64,000 nt of DNA from Okeania sp. SIO2B3 (GCF_010672525.1 NZ_JAAHGH010000039.1:41-64040); one strand, 5' to 3'; positions 26,994 to 43,003 are shown, counted from the first letter of the stretch. Made by a program: numbers and translations. The notes: generated from the letters alone by a model not told the origin.

Positions 26994-27626
26994 TTATTTC
27001 GTTCCATACAAGCGATCGCCTGCATCTCCTAATCCTGGAATAATATAACCATGTTCGTCTAATTTTTCATCAATAGCAGCAGTATATAAAGATACCTCTG
27101 GGTGATTTTCATGGAAATGTTGAATTCCCTCTGGTGCTGCCAATAAACACAGAAATCGAATTGATTCTGGGTTAAATTCTTTAATCCGATCGACTGCTGC
27201 TACTGCTGAATTTCCAGTTGCCAACATTGGGTCAACTATTAACACATCTCGCTGGTCAATATCATGGGGGACTTTGAAATAATATTCTACAGCAACTAAA
27301 GTGCTAGGGTCACGATACAAACCAATATGTCCTACTCTTGCTGTAGGTATTAGCTCTAAAATTCCATCAAGAAGTCCTTGACCTGCTCGCATAATGGAAA
27401 CAATCACCATTTTTTTTTCAGCAGCTAACATTGGTGCTTCCATTAATGTCATTGGTGTCTGAATTTGTTGATATTTTATGGGTAAATCGCGAGTTACTTC
27501 ATAAGCTAATAACATTCCTATTTCTTTGAGCAGTTGGCGAAATTGAGCAGTGGTAGTCTCGACTTGACGTAATAATGTCAATTTATGCTGAACTAATGGA
27601 TGATTAATGATAGTAGTTTTTGTCAT
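26994..27626 (-). CDS. upp: Uracil phosphoribosyltransferase
   Basis: 210 aa with PRPP loop [13 protein letters not shown] and C-terminal [16 protein letters not shown]. Confidence 0.92.
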
Positions 27627-27909: not shown

Positions 27910-28186
27910 ATTATAGGGCTTGCTGATTAAATATAAAAGCATTGACAGATAAGGGTTTTAGCCTTTTTCGGTCGAAAAAAGTGCCTGGTTTTCAGTTGAT
28001 TTGGCTCAAAAAGTTAGCATAAAAGGCAGGGGGATAGCAAAAAAAATCACTCTGACAAATATATCCGACTATCTCCTTTATAATTCCTCGTTTCTCCTAA
28101 TTACTCTGTACTCCCCTTTTCCCCTCCTGGGAGGGGTTAGGGGAGAGTTTCCTACTCCTTAAAAAGACTTTTTCAGCAAACCCTAA
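27910..28186 (+). mobile_element. MITE family A copy 5
   Basis: ATTATAGGGCTTGCTGATTAAAT ... AAAAAGACTTTTTCAGCAAACCCTAA, with an internal CCCCTCCTGGGAGGGGTTAGGGG core. Confidence 0.8.
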
Positions 28187-28294
28187 GTAGGGTGTGTGAG
28201 GGCACCCTTACCATTTCTAGAATAATGCTCGCTTTTACACCTCACCCACCGCGTGCTGTGGTATAGTCCCTTACGTGAAATTAACGCACCCTAC
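28187..28294. repeat. Short inverted-repeat element (GTAGGGTGTGT...ACGCACCCTAC)
   Basis: The ends are reverse complements (GTAGGGTGTGT / GTAGGGTGCGT). It lies directly against MITE-A copy 5. Confidence 0.45.
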
Positions 28295-28431
28295 TGGACC
28301 GACACAGCTAAAATGGTGCATTAGAGGAGTAGGGGAGTAGGGGAGTAGGGGAGAAAGATTTTTGTTGAGTTTATCCTACGGATAAGCTGCGAAGATCAGT
28401 CCCTCAACCCAACCTACAGTTATTGCAACAT

Positions 28432-28748
28432 TTAAGCCCACATTCGGAACTTCAATTTGTAACATCAAAAGTAGTATGCAAATCCGTAGCTTGGTAAGTA
28501 TTTATACTATGCAAATCATCTCAATTACTTTTTTCGTTGATCAAATTCCGAGTCAAAAATTTACGCATAAATACTTGCAGTATTGATGACTCAATCACGG
28601 CAGCTATGATTTTCTTCTAAAATTCTGTCTCCTGTCTCCCCCTCCCCTCCTGGGAGGGGTTAGGGGTGGGTTGGGAGGGGTTAGGGGTGGGTTGTCTCCT
28701 GACTCCTGATTCTATACTACATTTTGTGGTGCGGAATGTGGGTTTAAG
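28432..28748 (+). mobile_element. MITE family C copy A (TIR TTAAGCCCACATTCGGAAC / GCGGAATGTGGGTTTAA) with a nested tandem GGGAGGGGTTAGGGGTGGGTT insertion
   Basis: TIRs read directly. The interior aligns with the reverse complement of 37491-37734 (for example GTAACATCAAAAGTAGTATGCAAATCCGTAGCTTGG against GTAACATGAAAGTTAGTATAAAATCCGTAGCTTGC). Confidence 0.7.
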
Positions 28749-29086
28749 GTGAAATAGTCCACTACTAGACCTACTAGACCGACACAACTAAAATGGTAGA
28801 TTATATCATTGGGGGCGGGTTTATCTAATTTGTTAAGACTCATTAATTTAACGTGGAACCCGTCCCTACTATTGCAACATTTTAGGTGTGTCACGCCACT
28901 ACGTGATTTAATATTCATTTTACAAACACTCTCTTAGCTGAAACGTCTCTAGAGCAAATTTAGATAGAATTTACAATAGTAGGGAGGTACATTTTTTTAA
29001 CTTTATTAAATTCTCTAAAAATCAAAATAAAGTATGTACTTTACCACATTAAAAAATCGTCTAAATTAGCAAATTTATTAACTAAA

Positions 29087-29461
29087 TTAGTTATATACTA
29101 ATGCTTCCTTTGCTCTAGTAATTTCAATAGTAACTTTGCCACTAAAATCCGGTATTGGAGCTGCTAACTTAGTTAAACTAACCTTAACATTTTGTACTAA
29201 TGGTTCTTTCAAAATAGCCGTAGCGATCGCATCAGCTACTTTTTCTAACAAAGCAAACTTAGAATTTTTCACAAGCTGTTGGACAGTATTAACTATGCTG
29301 CCGTAATCTACAGTATCTTCTAAAGCATCGCTTTGACTAGCAGCATTCAAATCTAACCCTAGAATTAAATCTACTTCAAACCATTGTCCCAATACTTTTT
29401 CTTCTGGAAAAAACCCGATGTACCCGTAGCAGCGAATTCCAGTAATTGAGATTGAGTCCAT
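29087..29461 (-). CDS. folB: Dihydroneopterin aldolase
   Basis: 124 aa reading SITGIRCYGYIGFFPEEKVLGQWFEVDLIL...DYG. It begins 9 nt after the DUF1688 stop. Confidence 0.85.
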   Translation of the reverse strand: MDSISITGIRCYGYIGFFPEEKVLGQWFEVDLILGLDLNAASQSDALEDTVDYGSIVNTVQQLVKNSKFALLEKVADAIATAILKEPLVQNVKVSLTKLAAPIPDFSGKVTIEITRAKEALVYN

Positions 29462-29470
29462 AATTACTAA

Positions 29471-30859
29471 TTAAAAAACTGTTCCATCACTTTTTATTTT
29501 AATCGGAGGCGCACCATCTTTTCTTAATTCTTTTGCTATTTTTCGCCCTGCGGTCCATGTGCCACCTTGTAAGACTTTTACCAGTGGTAATTCTGAGGCA
29601 TTTAAGTTAAGTTTTTCTTGAATTACTTGAGCAACTTTGTCTAAAAGACTAATAGTTAGTGCTCTCCATTCTACAATAATTTCTGAGCCTGGTAAATGTT
29701 GTTGTTGTACAATCAAAGGATTTTTGATTTTTATTAGTTCCATGTCTATAAATAAGCCACCATTCCGATATTCTGCTAATCCAGTTAAATCATCTAATCC
29801 AATTATGTTTAAACCCAATTCTTGTAATGGTTCTAGCAATGAATATGTTAACCATTGAGATAATTTATGAAAAGGTATATATTCATCCCCCAAGCGATCG
29901 CTTTTGAGTAGAGAATGAGGCCAAACATCCCCTAAATTAATCCCTGAAATAGTACTGCGCCCTGGCCAAATATCACCTAATCCCTCCAATACAGTATTTA
30001 ATACTAAAGTAGCTTTAATTACTTCTTTATCTTTTCTGTTCTGTGGCGGGTTTAATACCCCACCATCTACACGGTGCTGAAAATTGTTTGGGGTTTGAGT
30101 CCATAAGCAATCTTTCCTTCTGCTTCCCCCCCTTTCAAAGGGGGGTAGGGGGGATACCTTCTTCCTTCTGCCTTCTTCAATGGCCTGATTTTGCCACAAA
30201 TAATCAACCATATTTCCTGGACGTGGACTATCAATGCCAAATAACTGAGAATTTTGATTTAACACTTGTCCCAAGCGTTGCAGCAATTCCAGACGACCTT
30301 CAAGACCCACCAAGGGATTTTCTGGACTAACTTGGAATCCTTGAGTTAAAGTCTGGACATCAATTTGGGAAAGTCCTCTAGTATCTGCTTGCCAGGGAAA
30401 ATCGGGATTACTAGAAAAAAAACCTTGGCAAAATAGTCGGAAACTACAAACTGCTAGACCTTCCGAACGACTAAATATTAAGCCAGTTTCAGGTTCAGTG
30501 TATTGCCAGTTTGCCCCGGCACCTGCATCTAGTAGTACACTAATAATGGCTAAATCAAATTTTACTTTGGCCTTTTCTACAGGCGTGAGTCCAGCCAACA
30601 TTTGGTCAAGTTCAGCTAGGCGAGGTATATCTCCTACTTGGAAATGTTGCCAACGACTATGGAAGGGTATGTTTAATGTGGGATAGCGATCGTAAATAAT
30701 ATTAATGACATAATTAGCACATTTATCTAGTTGAGTTAAATCGATTCGAAAATTATTGAGTTGGTCTTGACAAGCAAGATTAAATATGCGATTGCACCTT
30801 TCTCGAATGGCCTCGGGAGTTCTTAGATATGTAATAATTTCTGGGATTTTTTTATTCAT
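29471..30859 (-). CDS. DUF1688 (URC4-like) family protein carrying an in-frame repeat-derived insertion
   Basis: 462 aa, with length and conserved blocks typical of DUF1688. The segment EEGRRKKVSPLPPFERGGSRRKDC is encoded by heptamer repeats plus a CCCCCTTTCAAAGGGGGG palindrome at ~30113-30178. Confidence 0.65.
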   Translation of the reverse strand: MNKKIPEIITYLRTPEAIRERCNRIFNLACQDQLNNFRIDLTQLDKCANYVINIIYDRYPTLNIPFHSRWQHFQVGDIPRLAELDQMLAGLTPVEKAKVKFDLAIISVLLDAGAGANWQYTEPETGLIFSRSEGLAVCSFRLFCQGFFSSNPDFPWQADTRGLSQIDVQTLTQGFQVSPENPLVGLEGRLELLQRLGQVLNQNSQLFGIDSPRPGNMVDYLWQNQAIEEGRRKKVSPLPPFERGGSRRKDCLWTQTPNNFQHRVDGGVLNPPQNRKDKEVIKATLVLNTVLEGLGDIWPGRSTISGINLGDVWPHSLLKSDRLGDEYIPFHKLSQWLTYSLLEPLQELGLNIIGLDDLTGLAEYRNGGLFIDMELIKIKNPLIVQQQHLPGSEIIVEWRALTISLLDKVAQVIQEKLNLNASELPLVKVLQGGTWTAGRKIAKELRKDGAPPIKIKSDGTVF

Positions 30860-31023
30860 TAAAAGTCAGAGTTAAGGAATATAATATAAATAGTAAGCTA
30901 GAAAAAAACTATCACAAGCATGATGCTATTAAGCACAATTTAGTTGATGAGAAACTTGGATAGTTTCTTGTTAGTTTTTCTAAATTTAATTCAGCCAAAA
31001 ATCAGGTCAAAAATTCCCCAGTA

Positions 31024-31539
31024 ATGTCTAATCAAACTCACTTCAGTCAATCAGAAAAACAAGAGAATAATGTAGCTGTGGCTCTTGGTAGTAATCTCGG
31101 TGATTCTTTAACTATTCTCGAAAATGCAATCCAAACTTTATCAAAAACTCCAGGTATTACCTTAAAGACTTATTCTAGCTGGTATCGGACTAAACCTATT
31201 GGTCCAGAACAACCAGATTATCTCAATGGTTGTGCATTATTAAAAGTAGAATTAACACCCCATAAACTATTAGAAATTCTCTTAGATGTTGAACAACAAT
31301 TTAAGCGAGTACGTTTAGAACATTGGGGACCTAGAACTCTAGACCTAGACTTAATCTTATATGATGATTTAATATTAGATACTCCAAACCTGCAAATACC
31401 CCATCCTCGGATGAGAGAAAGAGCTTTTGTGCTTGTACCCCTAGCAGAAATAGCTCCTGACTGGATAGACCCAGTATCAGGAAAGGCGATCGCTCAACTT
31501 CTAGAAGAGGTAGAATGTGATGGAGTATCTAAACTTTAA
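31024..31539 (+). CDS. folK: 2-amino-4-hydroxy-6-hydroxymethyldihydropteridine diphosphokinase (HPPK)
   Basis: VAVALGSNLGDS, WGPRTLDLDLILYDD and IPHPRMRERAFVLVPLAEI. Confidence 0.88.
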   Translation: MSNQTHFSQSEKQENNVAVALGSNLGDSLTILENAIQTLSKTPGITLKTYSSWYRTKPIGPEQPDYLNGCALLKVELTPHKLLEILLDVEQQFKRVRLEHWGPRTLDLDLILYDDLILDTPNLQIPHPRMRERAFVLVPLAEIAPDWIDPVSGKAIAQLLEEVECDGVSKL

Positions 31540-31568
31540 ACTGGCAAGTTAAAATAGCGATTCTACTA

Positions 31569-32291
31569 ATGATTAAAAAAGCACTTGTTACAGGTTCAGC
31601 AGTGGGAATAGGCAGAGTGATCGCTCTAGACTTAGCTAGCAAAGGATTTGATGTAGCATTTCACTATAATAAAAGTGTAGAAGCAGCCAATCAAGCAAGT
31701 CAAGAAGCAACAAGCTACGGAGTCAAATCTATTGCTCTACAAGCAGATGTGACTAAACCAGAGCAAGCTCAGTCTCTTGTGGAAAATGCAGCAGAAAAAC
31801 TAGGAGGGTTATCTGTTGTAGTTAATAATGTGGGCAACTATTTGGAAAAACGAATCAGTCAAACATCTATAGAAGAATGGCATCAAATGCTTGATTCTAA
31901 CCTAAATTCCACTTTCTATGTTACTCAAGCAGCAATTCCTTACTTGAAAACAGCAGGGTGGGGACGTATCATTAACTTTGCCTTCGCTAGTGCCCAAAAT
32001 GTGATAGCAAGTAATATACAAACAGCCTATAGAGTTGCTAAGACTGGTATTATAATCTACACTAAGTCACTAGCTAAAGAGTTAATTAAGGACAAAATTA
32101 CTGCCAATGTCATTGCTCCAGGAGTCGCAGAAAATTCTGTTGGTTTAGACGAAAAAACTATCTCTCTCCTACCAAATAAACGACCCGCAACTTTAAAAGA
32201 AATCAGCAATGCAGTTGTTTTTTTTATCACTCCTGAAGCAGATTACATTACAGGACAAGTTTTGGAAGTAGCAGGGGGTATGAGATTGTAG
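31569..32291 (+). CDS. SDR family oxidoreductase (FabG / pteridine-reductase-like)
   Basis: 240 aa with TGSAVGIGR (TGxxxGIG), NNVG and YRVAKTG (YxxxK). Confidence 0.8.
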   Translation: MIKKALVTGSAVGIGRVIALDLASKGFDVAFHYNKSVEAANQASQEATSYGVKSIALQADVTKPEQAQSLVENAAEKLGGLSVVVNNVGNYLEKRISQTSIEEWHQMLDSNLNSTFYVTQAAIPYLKTAGWGRIINFAFASAQNVIASNIQTAYRVAKTGIIIYTKSLAKELIKDKITANVIAPGVAENSVGLDEKTISLLPNKRPATLKEISNAVVFFITPEADYITGQVLEVAGGMRL

Positions 32292-32469
32292 CTGTACATA
32301 GATTCCCTAGATTATGATTGCATAGATGTTTTGAAAGTAAGGCTGTAAACCCCTCCTCAACCCCCCCTACAAAAAGAGTTGTTCATAACAGCTATTCCTG
32401 GGCAATGGGAGTTAGTAGGGAATTTTGGCCAGACTGAAAATTACTATTTTTGATTACAGGAGTTGAACA

Positions 32470-33369
32470 ATGCTTACTCTAGCAGATATTTGCGAAGTGT
32501 ATGACAAACATCAGGATGACTACAATACCCAAGTTGAAGAATTCACTATTGGGAATAAAAAGTTTAACTTTAATTCTCAAACAGCGCTTTTAGGAATTAT
32601 TAATCTTTCCACTGATTCTTGGCATAATCACGCTATCTGTTACACCCCCGAACAAGCTATTGAGCGTGGCAAGGTTTTAACAGCTCAAGGTGCCGACATT
32701 ATAGATATTGGTGCGGAATCTAGTGTACCAAAGACACAAAGAGTTGATGAGTTTAAACAAAAAAGTTCACTTTTGCCTGTAATTGAAGCTCTTACTCAAG
32801 AAGGTGTATTGACTTCAGTTGAAACCTATTACCCTGAACTTGCAAGAATTTGTTTAAAAGCTGGTGCAAAGGTTGTTAACTTTACTGGAACTGAAAATAG
32901 TGAAGAAATGTATCGAGCTGTAGCTGATTTCGATGCAGCAATCATTATTTGTTACCTTCAAGAAAAAAACGTTAGAGATGTAAAGGACTTCGATTATACA
33001 TTAGCTAATGACCCAATAGATTTAGTCTATGATTATTTTGGCAAAGAGATAGAAAAAGCAACTAAACTAGGAGTCAAAAAAATTTTTGTAGATCCAGCAG
33101 TCGCTCTTCTTGGCCCTAGAAAAGAAGGTTTATATGCGTCAACTCAGATTAAATATCAAATCAGAAGCCTTTTAAATGCTTTTCGGCTAAGAAAATTAGG
33201 GTTTCCAGTTTTACATACGCTCTTCACTGCCAAAGAAATTTTTGGAGAAGAACTCAGAAGTGGTCAAGTTTTTACCTCAGTTTTTGCAGCATTAGGAAAA
33301 AATGATATGCTCAGAACTCACGAAGTTTCTAAAGTTAAAGCTGTTTTAGAGTGTATGAGTTTATTTTGA
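32470..33369 (+). CDS. Pterin-binding (dihydropteroate synthase-fold) protein, divergent
   Basis: 299 aa. It is collinear with the DHPS motifs, but they are altered: GIINLSTDSWHNHA, DIGAESSVPK, SVETYY, VVNFTG, VDPAVALLG and LRTHEV. Confidence 0.6.
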   Translation: MLTLADICEVYDKHQDDYNTQVEEFTIGNKKFNFNSQTALLGIINLSTDSWHNHAICYTPEQAIERGKVLTAQGADIIDIGAESSVPKTQRVDEFKQKSSLLPVIEALTQEGVLTSVETYYPELARICLKAGAKVVNFTGTENSEEMYRAVADFDAAIIICYLQEKNVRDVKDFDYTLANDPIDLVYDYFGKEIEKATKLGVKKIFVDPAVALLGPRKEGLYASTQIKYQIRSLLNAFRLRKLGFPVLHTLFTAKEIFGEELRSGQVFTSVFAALGKNDMLRTHEVSKVKAVLECMSLF

Positions 33370-33873
33370 CATCCTCCCCGGGGTTGACGCTTTGCTTCGC
33401 ATAGCTGTCGCTAACACAGGGTGCTGCTTCCTTGGCGGTAGTCTGATGCTTCCCTCCACGTCCGTTTAGAGTTTCCGTTAGCGTAGCTCCTCCGGAGGAG
33501 GCGTGCCCCCCGGCAACTAATAACAGTTTAGCATATATCCAATTCACTTGCATGCTCAAATAAAAAGTCGCCCTACAAGGGCGAGGCTTTAAACCCAATT
33601 TTTCGGTAAAAGTTTGGATGTTAAGATTTAGCTCACTCCATAGGAAGAATCCAAATTTTTGACGTTGGTGAATTGTAATGCTTTTGCCTCAAATATCTAT
33701 AGTTTTGCGGTTCATAAGTATTGAAGAGCATTACCTGATCGGCAACCCCAAATTTTTTAATCTCCCTCACTAAGAATAGGTTAGGAATGTCCGTCCGTTT
33801 TACAGCACAGAGGATGTCAAAATTTATCTCAGATAAAATTTGTACAACTTAATTTTTACCGAATAATTAATAC

Positions 33874-33962
33874 AGGACTTACGCAAAGACACTATTTATA
33901 GAGTAAATTAACTGTTGGACAATAGTTTTGAGTGTTATATATAGCATATCTGCGTAAGTCCT
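33874..33962. repeat. Hairpin element with 12-bp terminal inverted repeat AGGACTTACGCA / TGCGTAAGTCCT
   Basis: Read directly. A related element lies at 51377-51469, and solo ends occur near 9251 and 62911. Confidence 0.6.
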
Positions 33963-34160
33963 ATAATAATTAAATAATTCGCGCCTTGAAGCCTCCCTTT
34001 TTAAGGGAAAAAAAGCGGTCGATCTTCGTAGCTTCCCGAAGGGTGGGATGGATGGGTTTCCTAACCATATCCATGAGACTAAGATAAGAAATAATATTAC
34101 CTTATATTCAATTCCATAACGGTTTTAACCAGAGGTAATTATCAATTATTCATTAATGAA

Positions 34161-34907
34161 ATGGCTCCTAAATTTAGCTTAAGGACAATGATCAAAAAAT
34201 CACTTGTAACAAGTTCAGCAGTGGGAATAGGTAGAGCGATCACTCTCGACTTAGCAAGTAAAGTATTTGATGTAGCCTTTCATTATAACAAAAGCGTAGA
34301 AGCAGCCAACCAAGCAGCTCAAGAAGCAACTAATTATGGAGTAAAAGCGATCGTCAAACAAGCAGATATTACCAAACCCGAACAAGCTCAGTCTCTAGTC
34401 GAAAATGCAGCAGCACAATTGAGTGGTTTATCAGTAGTAGTTAATAATGTGGGTAACTACCTGAGAAAACCCATTAGCAAAACATCTATAAAAGAGTGGC
34501 AAGAAGTTATTAATTCTAACCTTAATGCCACTTTTTATATTACTAAAGCAGCACTTCCCTATCTCAAAGCAGCAAATGGCGCACGCATAGTTAATTTTGC
34601 TTGTGCCAGTGCCCAAAAAATGGCAGCACGCCAGACTAATACAGCTTATATAATTGCCAAAACTGGTATTATCATCTATACTAAATCATTAGCTGTGGAG
34701 CTAATAAAAGATAAAATTACTGTTAATGTAGTATCTCCTGGAGTCGCATAAAATTCTTGGGATATAGAAGAAATGATTCCTAAATAACCAGTTAAACGTC
34801 CAGCAAAGTTGACATAAATTAACCATGCTGTTTGGTTTTTTATTAACCCTAATTATAATTATATTACAGGGCAAGTTTTGGAAGTTTCTGGTGGTTGGAG
34901 TTTGTAG
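34161..34907 (+). pseudogene. Decayed paralog of the SDR gene at 31569-32291 (three in-frame TAA stops)
   Basis: It aligns codon by codon with the intact copy. GVAENSVG (gca gaa aat) becomes GVA*NSW (gca taa aat) at 34749. Two further TAA stops follow. The frame is retained to a shared C-terminus, YITGQVLEV(A/S)GG...L*. Confidence 0.8.
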
Positions 34908-34971
34908 TTATAATTTTTTTATCCAGATTTCTGAAAATTTATATTATTGATTATTTCAACATAAAATCACA

Positions 34972-35379
34972 ATGACATCAAATTCAGAAACTTGGATAAT
35001 AGGTAAAGAATTTAGATTTGAAGCTTCCCATCAACTACCTAATCATGATGGGAAATGTGCAAGATTACACGGTCATTCTTGGCGCGGCATTATTTATGTT
35101 TATGGTAATAAATTAGAAGATTCTGGATCAAAGCAGGGTATGATTATGGATTATGGAGATATAAAAAAATATCTAAAACCCCTACTTGATGATTATTTAG
35201 ACCATTATCACTTAAACGAAACTACAGGCTTAGTTAATCCTACTAGTGAAGCGATCGCTAAATGGATTTATGAGCAATTAGAAGATAAAATTCCTGGACT
35301 TGTAGCAGTTAGAATTGATGAAACTTGTACGAGTCAATGTATTTATTCAAAAGGAAAAAGTAATTTTTTGATTCTATAA
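34972..35379 (+). CDS. 6-pyruvoyl-tetrahydropterin synthase / 6-carboxytetrahydropterin synthase (PTPS/QueD family)
   Basis: 135 aa with EASHQLPNHDGKCARLHGHSW (the Cys plus HGH zinc and catalytic signature). Confidence 0.8.
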   Translation: MTSNSETWIIGKEFRFEASHQLPNHDGKCARLHGHSWRGIIYVYGNKLEDSGSKQGMIMDYGDIKKYLKPLLDDYLDHYHLNETTGLVNPTSEAIAKWIYEQLEDKIPGLVAVRIDETCTSQCIYSKGKSNFLIL

Positions 35380-35729
35380 AATTAGGAGCGCTATACTAAC
35401 TTATTACTCCTAAATTGGTTGTGATAAATTTGAGTGTATTTATTTTGTCAGCATTTCCTCCGGAATGCTGACAGCTGAATGCTTACTTTATTTTTTTCAG
35501 AAAAAATATTTTTTTGATGTTATGGAAGTTGCTATTTTATTAGGATTAATTTGGGGTAAATGATATTAGGTAAAGGCACTAAATTATTTGTAGTAGGCAA
35601 AAAATATAACCTTAGAAATATATAGTTTTTAGAACTAAAAATGCTTCAGTTATGTAAATTTAAATTAATTTGTCACAGGTACTTATGATTGGTAAGATTG
35701 CCAAATTATTACTATAAATAAATAACAAA

Positions 35730-37067
35730 ATGAAATTACTTAGTATATTCATTTTACTTAGTATCACTACTACCGTGTTGGCCTTGATAATCTTAAGTTT
35801 TCCCTGGAGACATCCCTTGCTCACAAACCTACAGATGAAATCTTTATTAGGTGCATTTCGGATATTATGGGGAATTTATTTTCGAGGCAAGTACAGTTAT
35901 ACTCAAGTCACCTTGATTGAGTCAGAAAAATATGTTTTACCAACAACATTAAAAGAGTTTGCCGATACTGAAAAAAATATCATCAGACAACCTTCTCGTC
36001 CAGTGGGCATGGAATATTTCTTTGCTGGTTTTGTCTACCCATTCTTACCCCTTGACTTAAGCGGTTCTGAGACCCCTAGTTGGCAGCGAATAATGCAGGG
36101 GTTTAAGGCCATTATGTCCCACTTCGAGCTTGAGGACAGATGTGGAGCGATCGCTACAACGCAAGTGTATAAGTTAACGAATTTAGAAGAAGAGTTAGTT
36201 ATAGATAACATTTTGCGTTGCTTGATTGTAGATATAATGTGGTGTGCTATTTTGGATGTTGAAACAAAGGATGATAGCTGGGAGTTAAATACTAAGCAAC
36301 TTCTATACAACCTGATTGAAGATATTTCCCTTTGCTTTACAGAAAATCTAGACCCTGACTGGAAACAACGTTTGGAATGGTGTAAACATCTTGCCCACTT
36401 CTTTGAAGAGGGTGGGAAAAATAGTAGCAATTTGGATTTTTTGGTTCAGTTAAGAATTACTTATTCTTTATCAATGCAAGAATGGTTAACAGCTATTGTT
36501 ATGGAATTTTTTGTCACCCCTGCTTTAGAAATTAGTGAGGTTATTACTAATATTTTTAAAGAATATGAAGACCATCCAGAAATTCTAGAACGTGCTGTTA
36601 AGGATAAGAAATATCTGAGAGCTGTGATTTTGGCAATAGCTTGTAAGTATCCTGTTCTAGAAAATATGTTTCGCGTAGCTGATGGTAAGGATGTGCCCTA
36701 TCATATTAATGTTGAAGTTGCTGATCAAACTGACTTACAATTTAATCCAGAAGATTTCTGCTCAAATAGTCCTCCCCCCTACCAATGGATCGGTTTTGGT
36801 AGTGGCCCTCGTGTTTGTAAGGGGCGTGTTCTGGCTATAAATATTATTGAATCTATAATAAAAGCTATCTACACCAAGTTTGAGGGATGGCCTAAAATGG
36901 AAATTAGCAGTGGTAGGCGGGTACATCCTAGTGTTTCGTTAGATGAGCGATTTTTACGTCTTTATGGCAGGGCATGGGTTGGCCGTGTTTTTTATAGGAT
37001 AGATAAAGTCATCCGACCTTCTTGCCCTCCTGCTCGCTTATATTTACCAGATTCTCTTTTTTCCTGA
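35730..37067 (+). CDS. Cytochrome P450-like protein, divergent, with an N-terminal membrane anchor
   Basis: 445 aa. The heme-thiolate loop is FNPEDF...WIGFGSGPRVCKGRVLA (FxxGxRxCxG). The N-terminus is hydrophobic (LLSIFILLSITTTVLALIILSF). I could not find I-helix or ExxR motifs in canonical form. Confidence 0.55.
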   Translation: MKLLSIFILLSITTTVLALIILSFPWRHPLLTNLQMKSLLGAFRILWGIYFRGKYSYTQVTLIESEKYVLPTTLKEFADTEKNIIRQPSRPVGMEYFFAGFVYPFLPLDLSGSETPSWQRIMQGFKAIMSHFELEDRCGAIATTQVYKLTNLEEELVIDNILRCLIVDIMWCAILDVETKDDSWELNTKQLLYNLIEDISLCFTENLDPDWKQRLEWCKHLAHFFEEGGKNSSNLDFLVQLRITYSLSMQEWLTAIVMEFFVTPALEISEVITNIFKEYEDHPEILERAVKDKKYLRAVILAIACKYPVLENMFRVADGKDVPYHINVEVADQTDLQFNPEDFCSNSPPPYQWIGFGSGPRVCKGRVLAINIIESIIKAIYTKFEGWPKMEISSGRRVHPSVSLDERFLRLYGRAWVGRVFYRIDKVIRPSCPPARLYLPDSLFS

Positions 37068-37093
37068 TTAGGTTCAAGCTATAGCGCTGCGCG

Positions 37094-37252
37094 CAGGCAA
37101 CAGGCAACAGGCAACAGGCAACAGGCAACAGGCAACCCACCCCTCGCCCCTCCCCCTCCCAGCTATCCCTGATAAGGAACTCCTGAAACCCTTGTAGGAA
37201 GGTGGGGAAGAGGGGGAAGAGGGGGAAGAGGGGGAAGAGGGGGAAGAGGGGG
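37094..37252. repeat. STRR-type arrays: (CAGGCAA)6 at 37094-37135, a GGGAGGGG-family core, and (AAGAGGGGG)5 at 37208-37252
   Basis: Units counted directly. Confidence 0.9.
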
Positions 37253-37490
37253 AAGTAAGAATTTTGTCTACAGTCCTCACACTTGCGTGTATTTTTCAAT
37301 ACAATTTTCTCCCGAAAAAGCCGCTCTTAGACTTACACATAACTTGTCTTTTTTGTCTACGTTTTATGTTAAGAAAGATGTTTATAAAGCATAGCCCTCC
37401 CAGGAGGGGAAGAAAAAGCGGATAATATAAAACTTTTAGTTATTGGACAATTCCTGTAATTTGTAAATATGCCAGCGCACATTGCTATAC

Positions 37491-37734
37491 AACCCACATT
37501 CCGCACCACAAAATGTAGCATAAACATATAAGTCAAAAGTCAAAAGTAAGAAATAAAAGTAAAGTGGTCAATAGGAGTCAACGATTTAGTAAGTATTTAT
37601 GCTGAATATTTAACTGACAATTTGACTCTTGATAAAGGTAAATGAAGATAATTTATATAGTATCTGTACCTAAGCAAGCTACGGATTTTATACTAACTTT
37701 CATGTTACAAATTGAAGTGCGGAATATGGGATTA
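37491..37734 (-). mobile_element. MITE family C copy B, inverted relative to copy A
   Basis: AACCCACATTCCGCACCACAAAATGTAG ... ATGTTACAAATTGAAGTGCGGAATATGGGATT. Confidence 0.7.
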
Positions 37735-37839
37735 AAAATTTGACAAAATGGGTATTGTATGATTTTTGGAGATGGCGATCGCTATGCCAATCAGCAGTAT
37801 AAGATATACTAAAAGGTTAGAGGCTAGGGAATTAAAAAA

Positions 37840-38439
37840 ATGGTCAACCAAAAACAACCTATCTTAAATAACGATGAAGTTAAACAACTTTTTATTAAAG
37901 GCGTTAACATTTTTTTAGCAGGGTCAGCAATTGCATTAGTATTTGGATTTATGATTTGGTTTGTCCATGGAACTATTATGGTTTCTGACCTATCAGAGAA
38001 AATTGTTGCTAAAGGTTGGGGTGCTTTAATTGCACTAATGGCTGTATTTTTATCTTTTATTGTACCTTCAATTGTTACTCTTTTCGGATTTGCGGTAATG
38101 GCATTATTGGTGTGGTGGTTATCTCGGGTTTTTTCCCAATATGAAGAATTTCAACCTACTGCTTTAATTGTTTATCAATTAGTAGCACCTGTGGGAATGA
38201 TAGCTGCTTTAATATTAGCTTCACCAGTGTTGATTTCCTATGCAGTTATTCGTTTATTTAATGGTAGTGGACAAGCATTAATTTCGGAAGTGAAAGAAGC
38301 ATCAAGTATTCTCTTGCCACTTGAATCTGATAATAAATTTATGAGTGGAACTCCAGCAGTTGAAACTCAATATTTAACAAGGGAAAAATTGATGAGTGAA
38401 ACTCAAGTTAAAACTCAATATTTAGAAGGAGAAAAATAA
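37840..38439 (+). CDS. Hypothetical integral membrane protein
   Basis: 199-aa ORF with about four long hydrophobic segments. I recognise no family motif. Confidence 0.5.
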   Translation: MVNQKQPILNNDEVKQLFIKGVNIFLAGSAIALVFGFMIWFVHGTIMVSDLSEKIVAKGWGALIALMAVFLSFIVPSIVTLFGFAVMALLVWWLSRVFSQYEEFQPTALIVYQLVAPVGMIAALILASPVLISYAVIRLFNGSGQALISEVKEASSILLPLESDNKFMSGTPAVETQYLTREKLMSETQVKTQYLEGEK

Positions 38440-38444
38440 TTGTT

Positions 38445-39941
38445 TTATTTCGGACGTTTAATTCCACCTTTACGTTTAACTTCAAAACCATATCTATAAA
38501 TATCTGGCATATTAATTCGCCGATCTGAGTGACGAATTTCCACAATACCTAATTGTTCTAAGTATTTTAAAATTTCTTGGGGTTTTTTAGAAGGTGGTTC
38601 TTGATTCCATTCTGTCTTTTTTAGTAACTTGAGAAATTTTTCTTCTTCAGTTAGAAGTGTTAAACCTTTGAGTTCTTCTCTTAAAGCATCTAACCAGGGG
38701 TATTCTTCCTTTGTAAGTTCTTCTATTCGATCTTGAGAAGTATCCATTAAAGCTCCTTGTAAGTCAGAAGGTTCTAATAAGCAATTTTCTGCTAAATCTT
38801 TTTCGTCAAATTTTTCTAATCTACGTTTTGCTGCTAAGGAGAATAGCTTTAAAAAAGAGCGTGGAGCAATGCTACGTTTTGCATCTTGAAGGTGATTAGG
38901 AATCCAATTATAAGTGTAACCTTTTCTAGAATTATTGCCCATAAATACTCCGACAATTTTTTCCATTAATAATTTAAAACAAGACTCATCTGATGCTGGC
39001 AATATGCCTAGTGTTTCATCCTTTTTTGAAGTTAAACCAGGAACTATTTGTAAATAATCATTCATTTCTTTTCTAGAGTTAGCTAAACGCTTAACAAATA
39101 CTTGATATAACCATGAAGTTTTCCACTCTAAACTAATTTTATGTCCACTGAGTTTAGAAGCATCTGGAAATCCTAAAAAATTTTCTCCAAATAAATCTGT
39201 GCGTAGAAATATTTTGGGTCTAATTCGTTCCCAACGACGCCATCTATCTAGCCAAAATGCTAATAGTTCGGCGATAGGAGCGCCCAGTTTTATATAAGAA
39301 GGAACAATTCGATCTAGTTCATCATAAGTGATAAATAACCAGCGGTCGCTTGCCAACAATTCCTCATCTAATTTATCCAAAGCATAGTTGATACTTTCAA
39401 AGTTCTGGTGAGCATCTGGAAACCAGCGGGAAAGTAATGATAAATTTTTAGTTAAACTATCTCGAATTTCCTCTGGTATTTCCTCACCCCAACTATGATT
39501 TGATAATTCTTTTTCTTGCTGAAATATTACTCCTACTATTAATCCTATCCAAAAAATACGCCAATCAATTCTATCCTTGTCTTTCATGTATTTTTCTGTT
39601 ATTTCTGGTGCAGGAAATTTTTTTTCCCCAGTCTTAGTACGACCATATCCAGCAATCCATATTGTTCTTTCTAAAGGGGGTAAACCTCTAATATTTAAGT
39701 TTTTTACTAAAGCTTGACGACCAGGAGAGTTTGCTAGTAAACGAAAAAATTCTGTTTTACCAACACCTCTACCACCTAATATTAAAAATGTGTCAACTTC
39801 CAAAGCCATTCGGTAGTTAGGTAAGGGTAAAAAATTTTTGAGGAATATCTTTTCATCATTACTTTCATGTTCAGCTCTACCTTCTCCTGGTGCAACATTA
39901 GCCATAATTTCTAATAGCTTTTTTTTATCAAAGTTAGTCAT
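38445..39941 (-). CDS. P-loop NTPase (Sll1717-like family) with a basic C-terminal wHTH-like tail
   Basis: 498 aa. Walker A is FLILGGRGVGKTEFF and Walker B is RWLFITYDELDRI. The C-terminus reads LEQLGIVEIRHSDRRINMPDIYRYGFEVKRKGGIKRPK. It starts 14 nt after the upstream gene ends. Confidence 0.7.
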   Translation of the reverse strand: MTNFDKKKLLEIMANVAPGEGRAEHESNDEKIFLKNFLPLPNYRMALEVDTFLILGGRGVGKTEFFRLLANSPGRQALVKNLNIRGLPPLERTIWIAGYGRTKTGEKKFPAPEITEKYMKDKDRIDWRIFWIGLIVGVIFQQEKELSNHSWGEEIPEEIRDSLTKNLSLLSRWFPDAHQNFESINYALDKLDEELLASDRWLFITYDELDRIVPSYIKLGAPIAELLAFWLDRWRRWERIRPKIFLRTDLFGENFLGFPDASKLSGHKISLEWKTSWLYQVFVKRLANSRKEMNDYLQIVPGLTSKKDETLGILPASDESCFKLLMEKIVGVFMGNNSRKGYTYNWIPNHLQDAKRSIAPRSFLKLFSLAAKRRLEKFDEKDLAENCLLEPSDLQGALMDTSQDRIEELTKEEYPWLDALREELKGLTLLTEEEKFLKLLKKTEWNQEPPSKKPQEILKYLEQLGIVEIRHSDRRINMPDIYRYGFEVKRKGGIKRPK

Positions 39942-41755: not shown

Positions 41756-43003
41756 TTAATCAGCTAAATTTCTCCCTTTAATCTCTGACAAAACATTCTC
41801 ATCCGGCACCTCCCCATCTGTATAATAACCCGCCGCTTTCTTCGCCGCAATTTCCACTTGCGCATCTTCTGGCACCAAGTCATCAGGAATAGGTACTCGC
41901 TCTACTATCTCAATGCCAGAATTAACAATAGCATTATATTTCATATCGCTCATCGACACCAAACGGTCAATCTTACTCACACCCAACCAATGCAAAACAT
42001 CTGGCATCAATTCCTGAAACCTCATATCTTGTACCCCCGCTACACATTCAGTCCGAGCAAAATAAGCATCCGCGCGATCGCCTCCTTCCTGTCTTTTCCG
42101 AGCATTGTAGACCAAAAATTTAGTCACTTCTCCCAATGCTCTCCCCTCTTTACGGAAATAAACTATCACACCGACTCCTCCCTCTTGCGCTGTCTGAATA
42201 CAAACTTCAATGCCATGCACCAAATAGGGGCGACAAGTACAAATATCAGAACCGAAAACATCTGAACCGTTACACTCATCGTGAACCCTGACTGCCAATT
42301 TTTTAGTAGGGTCAGAAACATCAGCAACATTTCCGACTATATATACTGTCGTACCACCAATAGGAGGCAAAAATAAATGTAAATCTGGGCGCGTTACCAA
42401 CTCTGGGAACATTCCACCCATTTGTTGAAACAACACCCGACGCAAGTCACTTTCTTCCACATTCAGTCGTTTAGCAATTCCTGGCAAATGCCAAACCGGG
42501 TCGATCGCTGCTTTTGTTACCAATAAATTGCCATTATCTTTAACAATATTACCATCAACTTTCAATACACCCCTAGCAACAGCATCCTGTAATTCTGGCA
42601 TATTAATATTTGCCTTCGTGACTGCAATAGTAGGTCGGATATCGTATCCCTGCTCATAGTAAGATGCAAAAACTTCTTCCACTACCGCCCCCCAAGGATC
42701 GAGACAGACAATTTTATCGGGGTTATACCAGCTCCGATGAGGTCCAATGCGTTCTGCTGGAGCAGTATTAGTCAAGTCAGCACGGTGATTTGATTGTAGT
42801 TTACCAGAAGCGATCGCCAAAGCACGATAAACAGCATAAGAACCGGAGTGAGTACCAATCACATTACGATGCTTAGGATTACTCAAAGACCCGATGGCAG
42901 GTCCCCGCTCTATGGGGTCTTGAGCGCCCCACTGCACCGGAATAGTTTTTTTGTCCGCAGGACCAGGATGAGATGTTAATACAATATGTTTATGCTTTGC
43001 CAT
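41756..43003 (-). CDS. GTP cyclohydrolase II-like protein of the URC1 type
   Basis: 415 aa with VRVHDECNGSDVFGSDICTCRPYL, VIVYFRKEGRALGEVTKFLVYNARKRQEGGD and DMRFQELMPDVLHWLGV. It is a GCH-II fold with the long N-terminal extension typical of URC1 homologs. Confidence 0.65.
   Translation of the reverse strand: MAKHKHIVLTSHPGPADKKTIPVQWGAQDPIERGPAIGSLSNPKHRNVIGTHSGSYAVYRALAIASGKLQSNHRADLTNTAPAERIGPHRSWYNPDKIVCLDPWGAVVEEVFASYYEQGYDIRPTIAVTKANINMPELQDAVARGVLKVDGNIVKDNGNLLVTKAAIDPVWHLPGIAKRLNVEESDLRRVLFQQMGGMFPELVTRPDLHLFLPPIGGTTVYIVGNVADVSDPTKKLAVRVHDECNGSDVFGSDICTCRPYLVHGIEVCIQTAQEGGVGVIVYFRKEGRALGEVTKFLVYNARKRQEGGDRADAYFARTECVAGVQDMRFQELMPDVLHWLGVSKIDRLVSMSDMKYNAIVNSGIEIVERVPIPDDLVPEDAQVEIAAKKAAGYYTDGEVPDENVLSEIKGRNLAD

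Follow-up and report, generated by a model that had tools for sequence, protein, structure and literature searches.

A TmpR-type reductase and a dihydropteroate synthase-like protein form a conserved gene pair among folate and queuosine genes in Okeania sp. SIO2B3

In the synthesis of tetrahydromethanopterin (H4MPT) by archaea and methylotrophs, a dihydropteroate synthase (DHPS)-fold enzyme of the MJ0301 type couples 6-hydroxymethyl-7,8-dihydropterin pyrophosphate (DHPPP) to an arylamine other than p-aminobenzoate (pABA), and the product is then reduced and methylated. Mycobacteria have a DHPS paralog, FolP2, that lacks DHPS activity. The folP2 gene of Mycobacterium leprae fails to complement (PMC1971073). 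The TmpR type of reductase was first found as Tm8-3, a trimethoprim-resistance gene of a soil metagenome (PMC3675766). Here we describe a locus at positions 29,087-37,067 of a 64,000-nt stretch of the genome of Okeania sp. SIO2B3 (the window), in which a TmpR-type short-chain dehydrogenase/reductase (SDR) is encoded next to a DHPS-like protein (DHPSL). A previous reading, made from the sequence alone, had suggested, as an inference, that the genes of this locus could make up a pathway to a modified pterin. We find that the locus is a composite of housekeeping genes for folate and queuosine and a conserved two-gene add-on, SDR1 and DHPSL-A. The sequence-only reading also implied a Nostocales setting. 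The host is instead an Okeania-type oscillatorian from the Microcoleaceae (the best match to its DHPSL, at 97% identity, is from Okeania sp. SIO3B5).

We searched the genome (10.0 Mb, 99.85% complete) family by family with profiles. The folB gene of the locus is the sole match to PF02152, folK is the sole match to PF01288, and queD is the sole gene of the PF01242 or COG0720 type. Additional copies of folB and folK, which it had seemed worth looking for, are not found in the genome. With only one copy each of folB, folK, and queD, the cell must rely on these genes for its normal folate and queuosine synthesis, which means that none of the three can be reserved for a special pathway. The product of queD does belong to the 6-pyruvoyltetrahydropterin synthase (PTPS)/QueD family, as had been noticed. 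It scores above the QueD equivalog cutoff (TIGR03367), with a motif, CARLHGH, that fits the C-x3-HGH zinc/catalytic pattern, and QueC is encoded elsewhere in the genome (264 bits), so this gene is the cell's queD. A canonical FolP is encoded on another contig (C171). It matches PF00809 at 304 bits, versus 104 bits for DHPSL, and has all of the classic motifs. DHPSL is therefore an extra paralog and not the sole folP of this genome. The profile search found no FolA-type dihydrofolate reductase (DHFR) in the genome (best score 23.6 bits).

The other part of the locus, the SDR and DHPSL, recurs as a unit. We compared 79 loci from GTDB species representatives, and we clustered the neighboring open reading frames (ORFs) in the 71 loci that are cyanobacterial; it is from these 71 that we define the SDR-DHPSL cluster. 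The core arrangement is repeated across them, which is beyond chance, and the SDR is next to DHPSL in 70 of 71. Counting genes instead of loci, 70 of 82 DHPSL genes have a TmpR-type SDR 25-494 nt upstream on the same strand. We also examined 301 evenly drawn genomes of Cyanobacteriota, with thresholds of over 400 bits for DHPSL and the model cutoff for the SDR. The SDR and DHPSL are confined to an identical set of five genomes. DHPSL proteins are 62-97% identical across Trichodesmium, Okeania, Lyngbya, Moorena, Rivularia, Prochloron, Dolichospermum, and others. Their tree contains three clades (A, B, and C), which are distant from FolP and do not track the species tree. The tree of the SDR mirrors these subtypes, with 3 changes as compared to about 25 in shuffles. 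Finally, canonical FolP accompanies DHPSL in 42 of the 44 carriers that we checked (5/5 sampled cyanobacteria, 5/5 non-cyanobacteria, and 32/34 further carriers). Because most cyanobacteria have neither FolA nor the SDR, the SDR-DHPSL pair is an accessory module and not a general cyanobacterial answer to the absence of DHFR. The pair would be a horizontally mobile module that is set among housekeeping genes.

All eight of the ORFs that had been described are present, and each was identified with Pfam and NCBIfam models. The 9-nt gap between folB and the DUF1688 gene is confirmed by the ORF listing, while the divergent spacer measures 164 nt instead of 165 bp. The features are:

28431-28744, no strand: left copy of an inverted repeat that resembles a miniature inverted-repeat transposable element (MITE), with arms of 47-53 nt that are 81-85% complementary
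29087-29461, minus strand: folB, encoding dihydroneopterin aldolase (PF02152, 124 bits; TIGR00525, 103 bits, cutoff 72)
29471-30859, minus strand: DUF1688 gene, URC4-type (PF07958, 517 bits), followed after 9 nt by folB
30860-31023, no strand: divergent intergenic region between DUF1688-folB (minus) and folK-SDR-DHPSL (plus), 164 nt by ORF coordinates
31024-31539, plus strand: folK, encoding 6-hydroxymethyl-7,8-dihydropterin pyrophosphokinase (HPPK), which makes DHPPP (TIGR01498, 147.5 bits, cutoff 54)
31569-32291, plus strand: SDR1, TmpR-type reductase (NF012208, 378.5 bits, cutoff 325)
32470-33369, plus strand: DHPSL-A, DHPS-fold paralog of subtype A (PF00809, 104 bits; TIGR01496, 117.8 bits, cutoff 162.6)
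34188-34907, plus strand: SDR2 pseudogene, with a truncated ORF at 34161-34751 (NF012208, 350 bits; three in-frame TAA codons)
34972-35379, plus strand: queD, PTPS family, 6-carboxytetrahydropterin synthase (PF01242, 117 bits; TIGR03367, 97.8 bits, cutoff 89.25)
35730-37067, plus strand: P450-like gene, divergent and membrane-anchored (PF00067 over residues 337-385 only)
37491-37736, no strand: right copy of the MITE-like inverted repeat, with arms of 47-53 nt that are 81-85% complementary

The two MITE-like repeats are inverted copies and flank the entire stretch from folB to the P450-like gene (28.4-37.7 kb). A promoter scan of the divergent region gave only weak consensus matches, none above the expectation from shuffled sequences, and a terminator scan gave a similar result. 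Rfam and tRNA scans of positions 28000-38500 had no matches, hence no THF or preQ1 riboswitch.

The SDR had been described correctly but generically. SDR1 has intact SDR motifs (TGSAVGIG, which fits TGxxxGIG, and YRVAK, which fits YxxxK), and it is also above the cutoff of NF012208, the model for the bifunctional dihydropteridine/dihydrofolate reductase TmpR. As for DHPSL, public records label it as dihydropteroate synthase, yet DHPSL-A scores below the equivalog cutoff of TIGR01496. An AlphaFold2 model of DHPSL (pLDDT 86) is a DHPS TIM barrel. When this model was compared to known structures with Foldseek, the top 40 or more matches were all DHPS (E ~ 1e-17, TM-scores of 0.7-0.8, and 21-28% identity).

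To map the active site, we aligned 43 members of the DHPSL family, FolP from E. coli, and 17 canonical FolPs from carrier genomes (MAFFT, profile-profile comparison). DHPSL retains N22, D26, S27, D56, N115, D185, R235, R255, and H257 of E. coli FolP. Five of these are invariant in all 43 DHPSL sequences: N22, R255, and H257, which handle magnesium and pyrophosphate, and N115 and D185, which handle the pterin. D96 of FolP is replaced by glutamate in these sequences. In contrast, R63 and P64 of loop 2 are lost, and both positions are variable. S219-R220-K221-S222 becomes x-A-x-E, with an invariant glutamate where a serine of FolP binds the carboxylate of pABA. All six of these positions are invariant in the 18 FolP sequences. 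In structures of Sul and DHPS proteins, the lysine hydrogen-bonds the pterin and the next serine holds the carboxylate of pABA (PMC10328974). The earlier impression that the active-site motifs are altered was correct, and the alteration is specific: residues of the pABA site are lost, while those for pterin and pyrophosphate are kept. Judged from this pattern, DHPSL appears capable of binding and ionizing DHPPP, but it seems unable to hold pABA in the way that FolP does.

Our searches and alignments give gene content, copy numbers, co-occurrence, and a pattern of residues, and from these we infer a substrate and a product. FolB and FolK supply DHPPP for folate, and QueD serves queuosine, with all three drawing on dihydroneopterin triphosphate. 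DHPSL would bind DHPPP made by FolK and, like DHPS, expel pyrophosphate, but the nucleophile that receives the 6-methylene-dihydropterin unit would not be free pABA. The TmpR-type SDR would then take the resulting 7,8-dihydro compound to the tetrahydro level. We put the probability at roughly one in two that the locus combines housekeeping folB, folK, and queD with an accessory SDR-DHPSL module that draws DHPPP from FolK, joins the pterin to some acceptor that is not free pABA, and reduces the resulting compound.

The neighborhoods of DHPSL in other cyanobacteria suggest how such a pathway might continue. Across the 71 loci, folK is within 7 kb of DHPSL in 55, a NUDIX hydrolase is present in 45 (mostly just upstream of the SDR or adjoining folB), folB is present in 33, a thioredoxin-reductase-like flavoprotein is present in 22, QueD is downstream of DHPSL in 21, and a MurL-like protein is present in 20. 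So the co-localization that had been proposed as a check does hold: folK, the SDR, and DHPSL are grouped in many cyanobacteria, and folB and QueD are frequently there as well. (The ortholog of the NUDIX hydrolase in our genome is on a different contig.) Two methyltransferases follow the subtypes. The EgtD-like MT33 (PF10017) is found in 29 of the loci, all with type B, and MT388 is found in 12, all with type A or C and often with SurE or a HAD phosphatase. The MT33 subfamily is found in 3 of the 301 sampled genomes, each of which is a carrier of DHPSL-B. In these relatives, a methyltransferase for each subtype (EgtD-like with B, another with A or C) and phosphatases would extend the pathway; these extensions are absent from the genome of Okeania sp. 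SIO2B3.

More tentatively, and with somewhat less than an even chance of being right, we propose that the SDR, DHPSL, and the subtype methyltransferases of these relatives make a tetrahydropterin conjugate that has not been described so far. Such a compound would add a third class to the C9-N-linked pterin cofactors or metabolites, besides folate and methanopterin, and its distribution would take in well over 100 cyanobacterial species as well as some Verrucomicrobia and Proteobacteria.

The MurL-like protein (463 amino acids) is often encoded 3' of DHPSL-B, as at L081:7003-8394 and in 19 other type-B loci. It has no Pfam domain and is weakly similar (84 bits) to MurL, which is the UDP-MurNAc-L-Ala-L-Glu epimerase. 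Its substrate may be a glutamyl or other amino-acid group in the pair's product. In relatives from Okeania, Trichodesmium, and Dapis (L017, L024, L026, L031, L065, and L066), three genes are inserted between folK and the SDR, and the window is without this insert. These genes encode a double N-methyltransferase (similar to sarcosine/dimethylglycine methyltransferases), PanD, and a dioxygenase similar to gamma-butyrobetaine dioxygenase or TmpA. The insert looks like a betaine-type pathway.

The window once had more of this system. What had been called a dead copy of the SDR is a pseudogene, SDR2, which aligns at full length (34188-34904) and in frame but has three TAA stops. Its translation also has an altered cofactor motif (TG to TS). 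SDR2 is the ortholog of SDR2 from Trichodesmium erythraeum (76% identity), in which the gene order is SDR1, DHPSL-A, SDR2, DHPSL-B, queD. By sequence comparison, no remnant of DHPSL-B is present anywhere in the window. Relatives from Okeania and Dapis keep pair A, pair B, or both, and several have an intact SDR2 but have lost DHPSL-B. The window is a reduced, partly decayed instance of the SDR-DHPSL family: the second module has decayed, with SDR2 a pseudogene and DHPSL-B deleted.

We also considered another match to Pterin_bind, the fourth in this genome (C186:55540-55914, broken by three stop codons), as the missing DHPSL-B. We rejected it, as it has no similarity to DHPSL; it may be a fragment of folP or metH. 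Compared with Okeania sp. SIO3B5, the region has diverged as a mosaic: dS varies between 0.03 and 0.52 from one gene to the next, a pattern that suggests recombination.

Several observations weigh against our proposal for the SDR and DHPSL. First, the DHPSL of the window, along with the copy from Okeania sp. SIO3B5, is atypical for the family in that another sequence takes the place of the loop-6 motif G-x-G-Y-x-N-F-Y-Y and a lysine occupies the position of K221. (A compensated frameshift does not explain the odd loop 6, because Okeania sp. SIO3B5 has this segment in the same frame.) The dN/dS of the window's DHPSL is 0.26-0.50, as compared to 0.05-0.19 for the nearby folB, folK, and queD; selection still acts on it, although more loosely, and this copy may be drifting. 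Second, the genome encodes neither MT33 nor MT388 nor any other dedicated partner for the pair, so the acceptor must be a common metabolite, with pABA and pABA-glutamate among the candidates. Third, dihydrofolate reduction may be all that the SDR does in this cell, as the genome lacks FolA. Fourth, canonical FolP was not detected in two of the 34 further carriers, both of which are metagenome-assembled genomes, and the DHPSL genes of Verrucomicrobia have no SDR partner. (The neighbors of the verrucomicrobial genes, which encode YebC, a UVR-motif protein, and an integrase, are uninformative.) Last, our literature search for the DHPSL family, for cyanobacterial DHPS paralogs, and for DHPS-like proteins turned up no specific paper.

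The main alternative is an ordinary folate operon that encodes alternative isozymes. In this reading, DHPSL would genuinely make dihydropteroate or dihydrofolate, with a different way of binding pABA or pABA-glutamate, and the SDR would be the DHFR. Such isozymes might salvage the breakdown products of folate, or they might be insensitive to an antimetabolite. The setting of the pair among folK, folB, and (in relatives) the NUDIX gene fits this explanation, as do the retention of all of the pyrophosphate and pterin residues in DHPSL and the ability of the pair to occur without a dedicated gene for making an acceptor. Furthermore, the SDR scores above the cutoff of the TmpR model, whose name refers to DHFR activity, and Thermus thermophilus, which has no match to FolA, has a TmpR-type SDR that does so as well. 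The absence of FolA from 38 of 39 cyanobacterial carriers, including our genome, points the same way. In more detail, one of the other four sampled carriers has a marginal, partial match to PF00186 (26.5 bits), but no match reaches E <= 1e-8 in any of the five. FolA is present in 1 of the 34 further carriers. However, FolA is present in 5/5 of the non-cyanobacterial carriers, and FolA-type DHFR is rare in Cyanobacteriota in general (16/301). Since one of the 34 carriers has both FolA and the pair, and most cyanobacteria have neither, the mutual exclusion of FolA and SDR-DHPSL is suggestive but not strict, and the SDR is not a general solution for DHFR. Nor has DHPSL replaced FolP, which nearly all carriers retain, and the family-wide loss of the residues that hold pABA, with glutamate in place of the carboxylate-binding serine, speaks against this explanation. 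The co-occurrence of DHPSL with subtype-specific methyltransferases also argues against a plain folate role. Overall, we consider the isozyme explanation to be rather unlikely.

As a separate matter, FolA (16/301) and the TmpR-type SDR (5/301) leave the DHFR of most cyanobacteria unaccounted for by either family.

Alternatively, DHPSL might not be an enzyme, and might instead be a pterin- or folate-binding partner of the SDR (a carrier, sensor, or regulator). The equivalent of the catalytically important Lys221 is not conserved in the DHPSL family, and DHPSL is strictly co-inherited with the SDR. The mycobacterial FolP2 discussed above is a precedent for a DHPS paralog of this kind. But the invariance of N22, R255, H257, N115, and D185 is hard to explain without DHPPP chemistry, and the verrucomicrobial copies occur without the SDR they would partner. 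We view this explanation as improbable. (The predicted complex of the SDR and DHPSL had a score of 0.00, which we count neither for nor against any of these explanations.)

The remaining two genes of the locus are adjacent only, with no part in the module. The P450-like protein matches PF00067 at 25.5 bits (the cutoff is 22.8) over the loop with the cysteine ligand, residues 337-385, and its heme loop, FGSGPRVCKG, fits FxxGxRxCxG. It has just six homologs among 5.8 billion proteins, of which four carry a precomputed match to PF00067. The closest of these is from Okeania sp. SIO2C9 (93% identity). The gene is present in 0 of the 79 related loci, including the locus from Okeania with the 97%-identical DHPSL, where a 199-amino-acid ORF directly follows queD. 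The P450-like gene is an insertion specific to this lineage and lies outside the conserved cluster.

Across the 79 loci, DUF1688 is restricted to those of the Okeania/Dapis type, and T. erythraeum lacks DUF1688 between folB and folK. We take DUF1688 to be the URC4 family. A uracil phosphoribosyltransferase (UPRT) is encoded at 26994-27626 (minus strand), and a URC1-type GTP cyclohydrolase II with a GTP_CH_N domain is encoded at 41756-43003 (minus strand); both of these genes and DUF1688 are within 16 kb. In yeast, URC1 and URC6 (which is a UPRT) break uracil down as far as ribosylurea, from which URC4 produces urea (PMC7530994). Given these neighbors and the yeast scheme, a role in pyrimidine metabolism fits DUF1688 better than a role in pterin metabolism, and the gene probably belongs to a URC-like set of separated genes for pyrimidine degradation and not to the pterin cluster. 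This set resembles a scattered bacterial form of the yeast set that is interrupted by the pterin cluster and a defense cassette.

The comparative data largely refute the proposal that all eight genes, including DUF1688, the PTPS gene, and the P450-like gene, form one modified-pterin pathway such as for cyanopterin, and we consider it very improbable: the genes are close together and are flanked by the MITE-like repeats, but the P450-like gene is a near-orphan, DUF1688 is from one lineage and sits with URC1 and UPRT, folB, folK, and queD are single-copy housekeeping genes, and no glycosyltransferase of the cyanopterin type is found among the recurrent neighbors in the 71 loci.

The label of dihydropteroate synthase is probably wrong for the entire DHPSL family, whose carriers include bloom-forming and symbiotic cyanobacteria such as Trichodesmium, Okeania, Moorena, Dolichospermum, Richelia, and Prochloron. 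Separating the housekeeping genes for folate and queuosine from the accessory genes in such loci is useful for annotation. If the SDR and DHPSL do make a new pterin compound, then this would be an extra branch of pterin metabolism from DHPPP, and it would bear on the long-standing question of how cyanobacteria without FolA reduce folates and pterins.

How does the pair compare to the known systems? By fold, DHPSL resembles FolP (EC 2.5.1.15; PDB 1AJ0 from E. coli and 3TYZ from Yersinia pestis), with the same TIM barrel and the same residues for magnesium, pyrophosphate, and pterin (except for glutamate in place of D96), and it adjoins folK, which is the source of DHPPP. It differs from FolP in its low identity (21-28%) and its score under the TIGR01496 cutoff, in lacking the Arg-Pro of loop 2 and the Ser-Arg-Lys-Ser motif, in having about 36 additional N-terminal residues that form a helix and a hairpin, and in being accompanied by a genuine FolP. 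The DHPS-like enzymes of H4MPT synthesis (MJ0301 type, TIGR00284) are far from DHPSL, which scores 26.4 bits against a cutoff of 256.65, and the clustered neighbors of DHPSL in the 71 loci include neither beta-ribofuranosylaminobenzene 5'-phosphate (beta-RFAP) synthase nor other H4MPT genes. FolP2 from mycobacteria (Rv1207; PDB 2VP8) is similar to DHPSL in being a second, non-redundant DHPS paralog alongside FolP1. By sequence, however, FolP2 is not the closest structure to DHPSL (65.6 bits versus 99.6 bits for ordinary DHPS), and FolP2 clusters with cell-wall genes, whereas DHPSL clusters with the SDR and folK. The SDR itself is similar to TmpR/Tm8-3, with a score of 378.5 bits against a cutoff of 325 and intact motifs. 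It differs from Tm8-3 in that it is paired on the chromosome with a DHPS paralog and has co-diverged with it.

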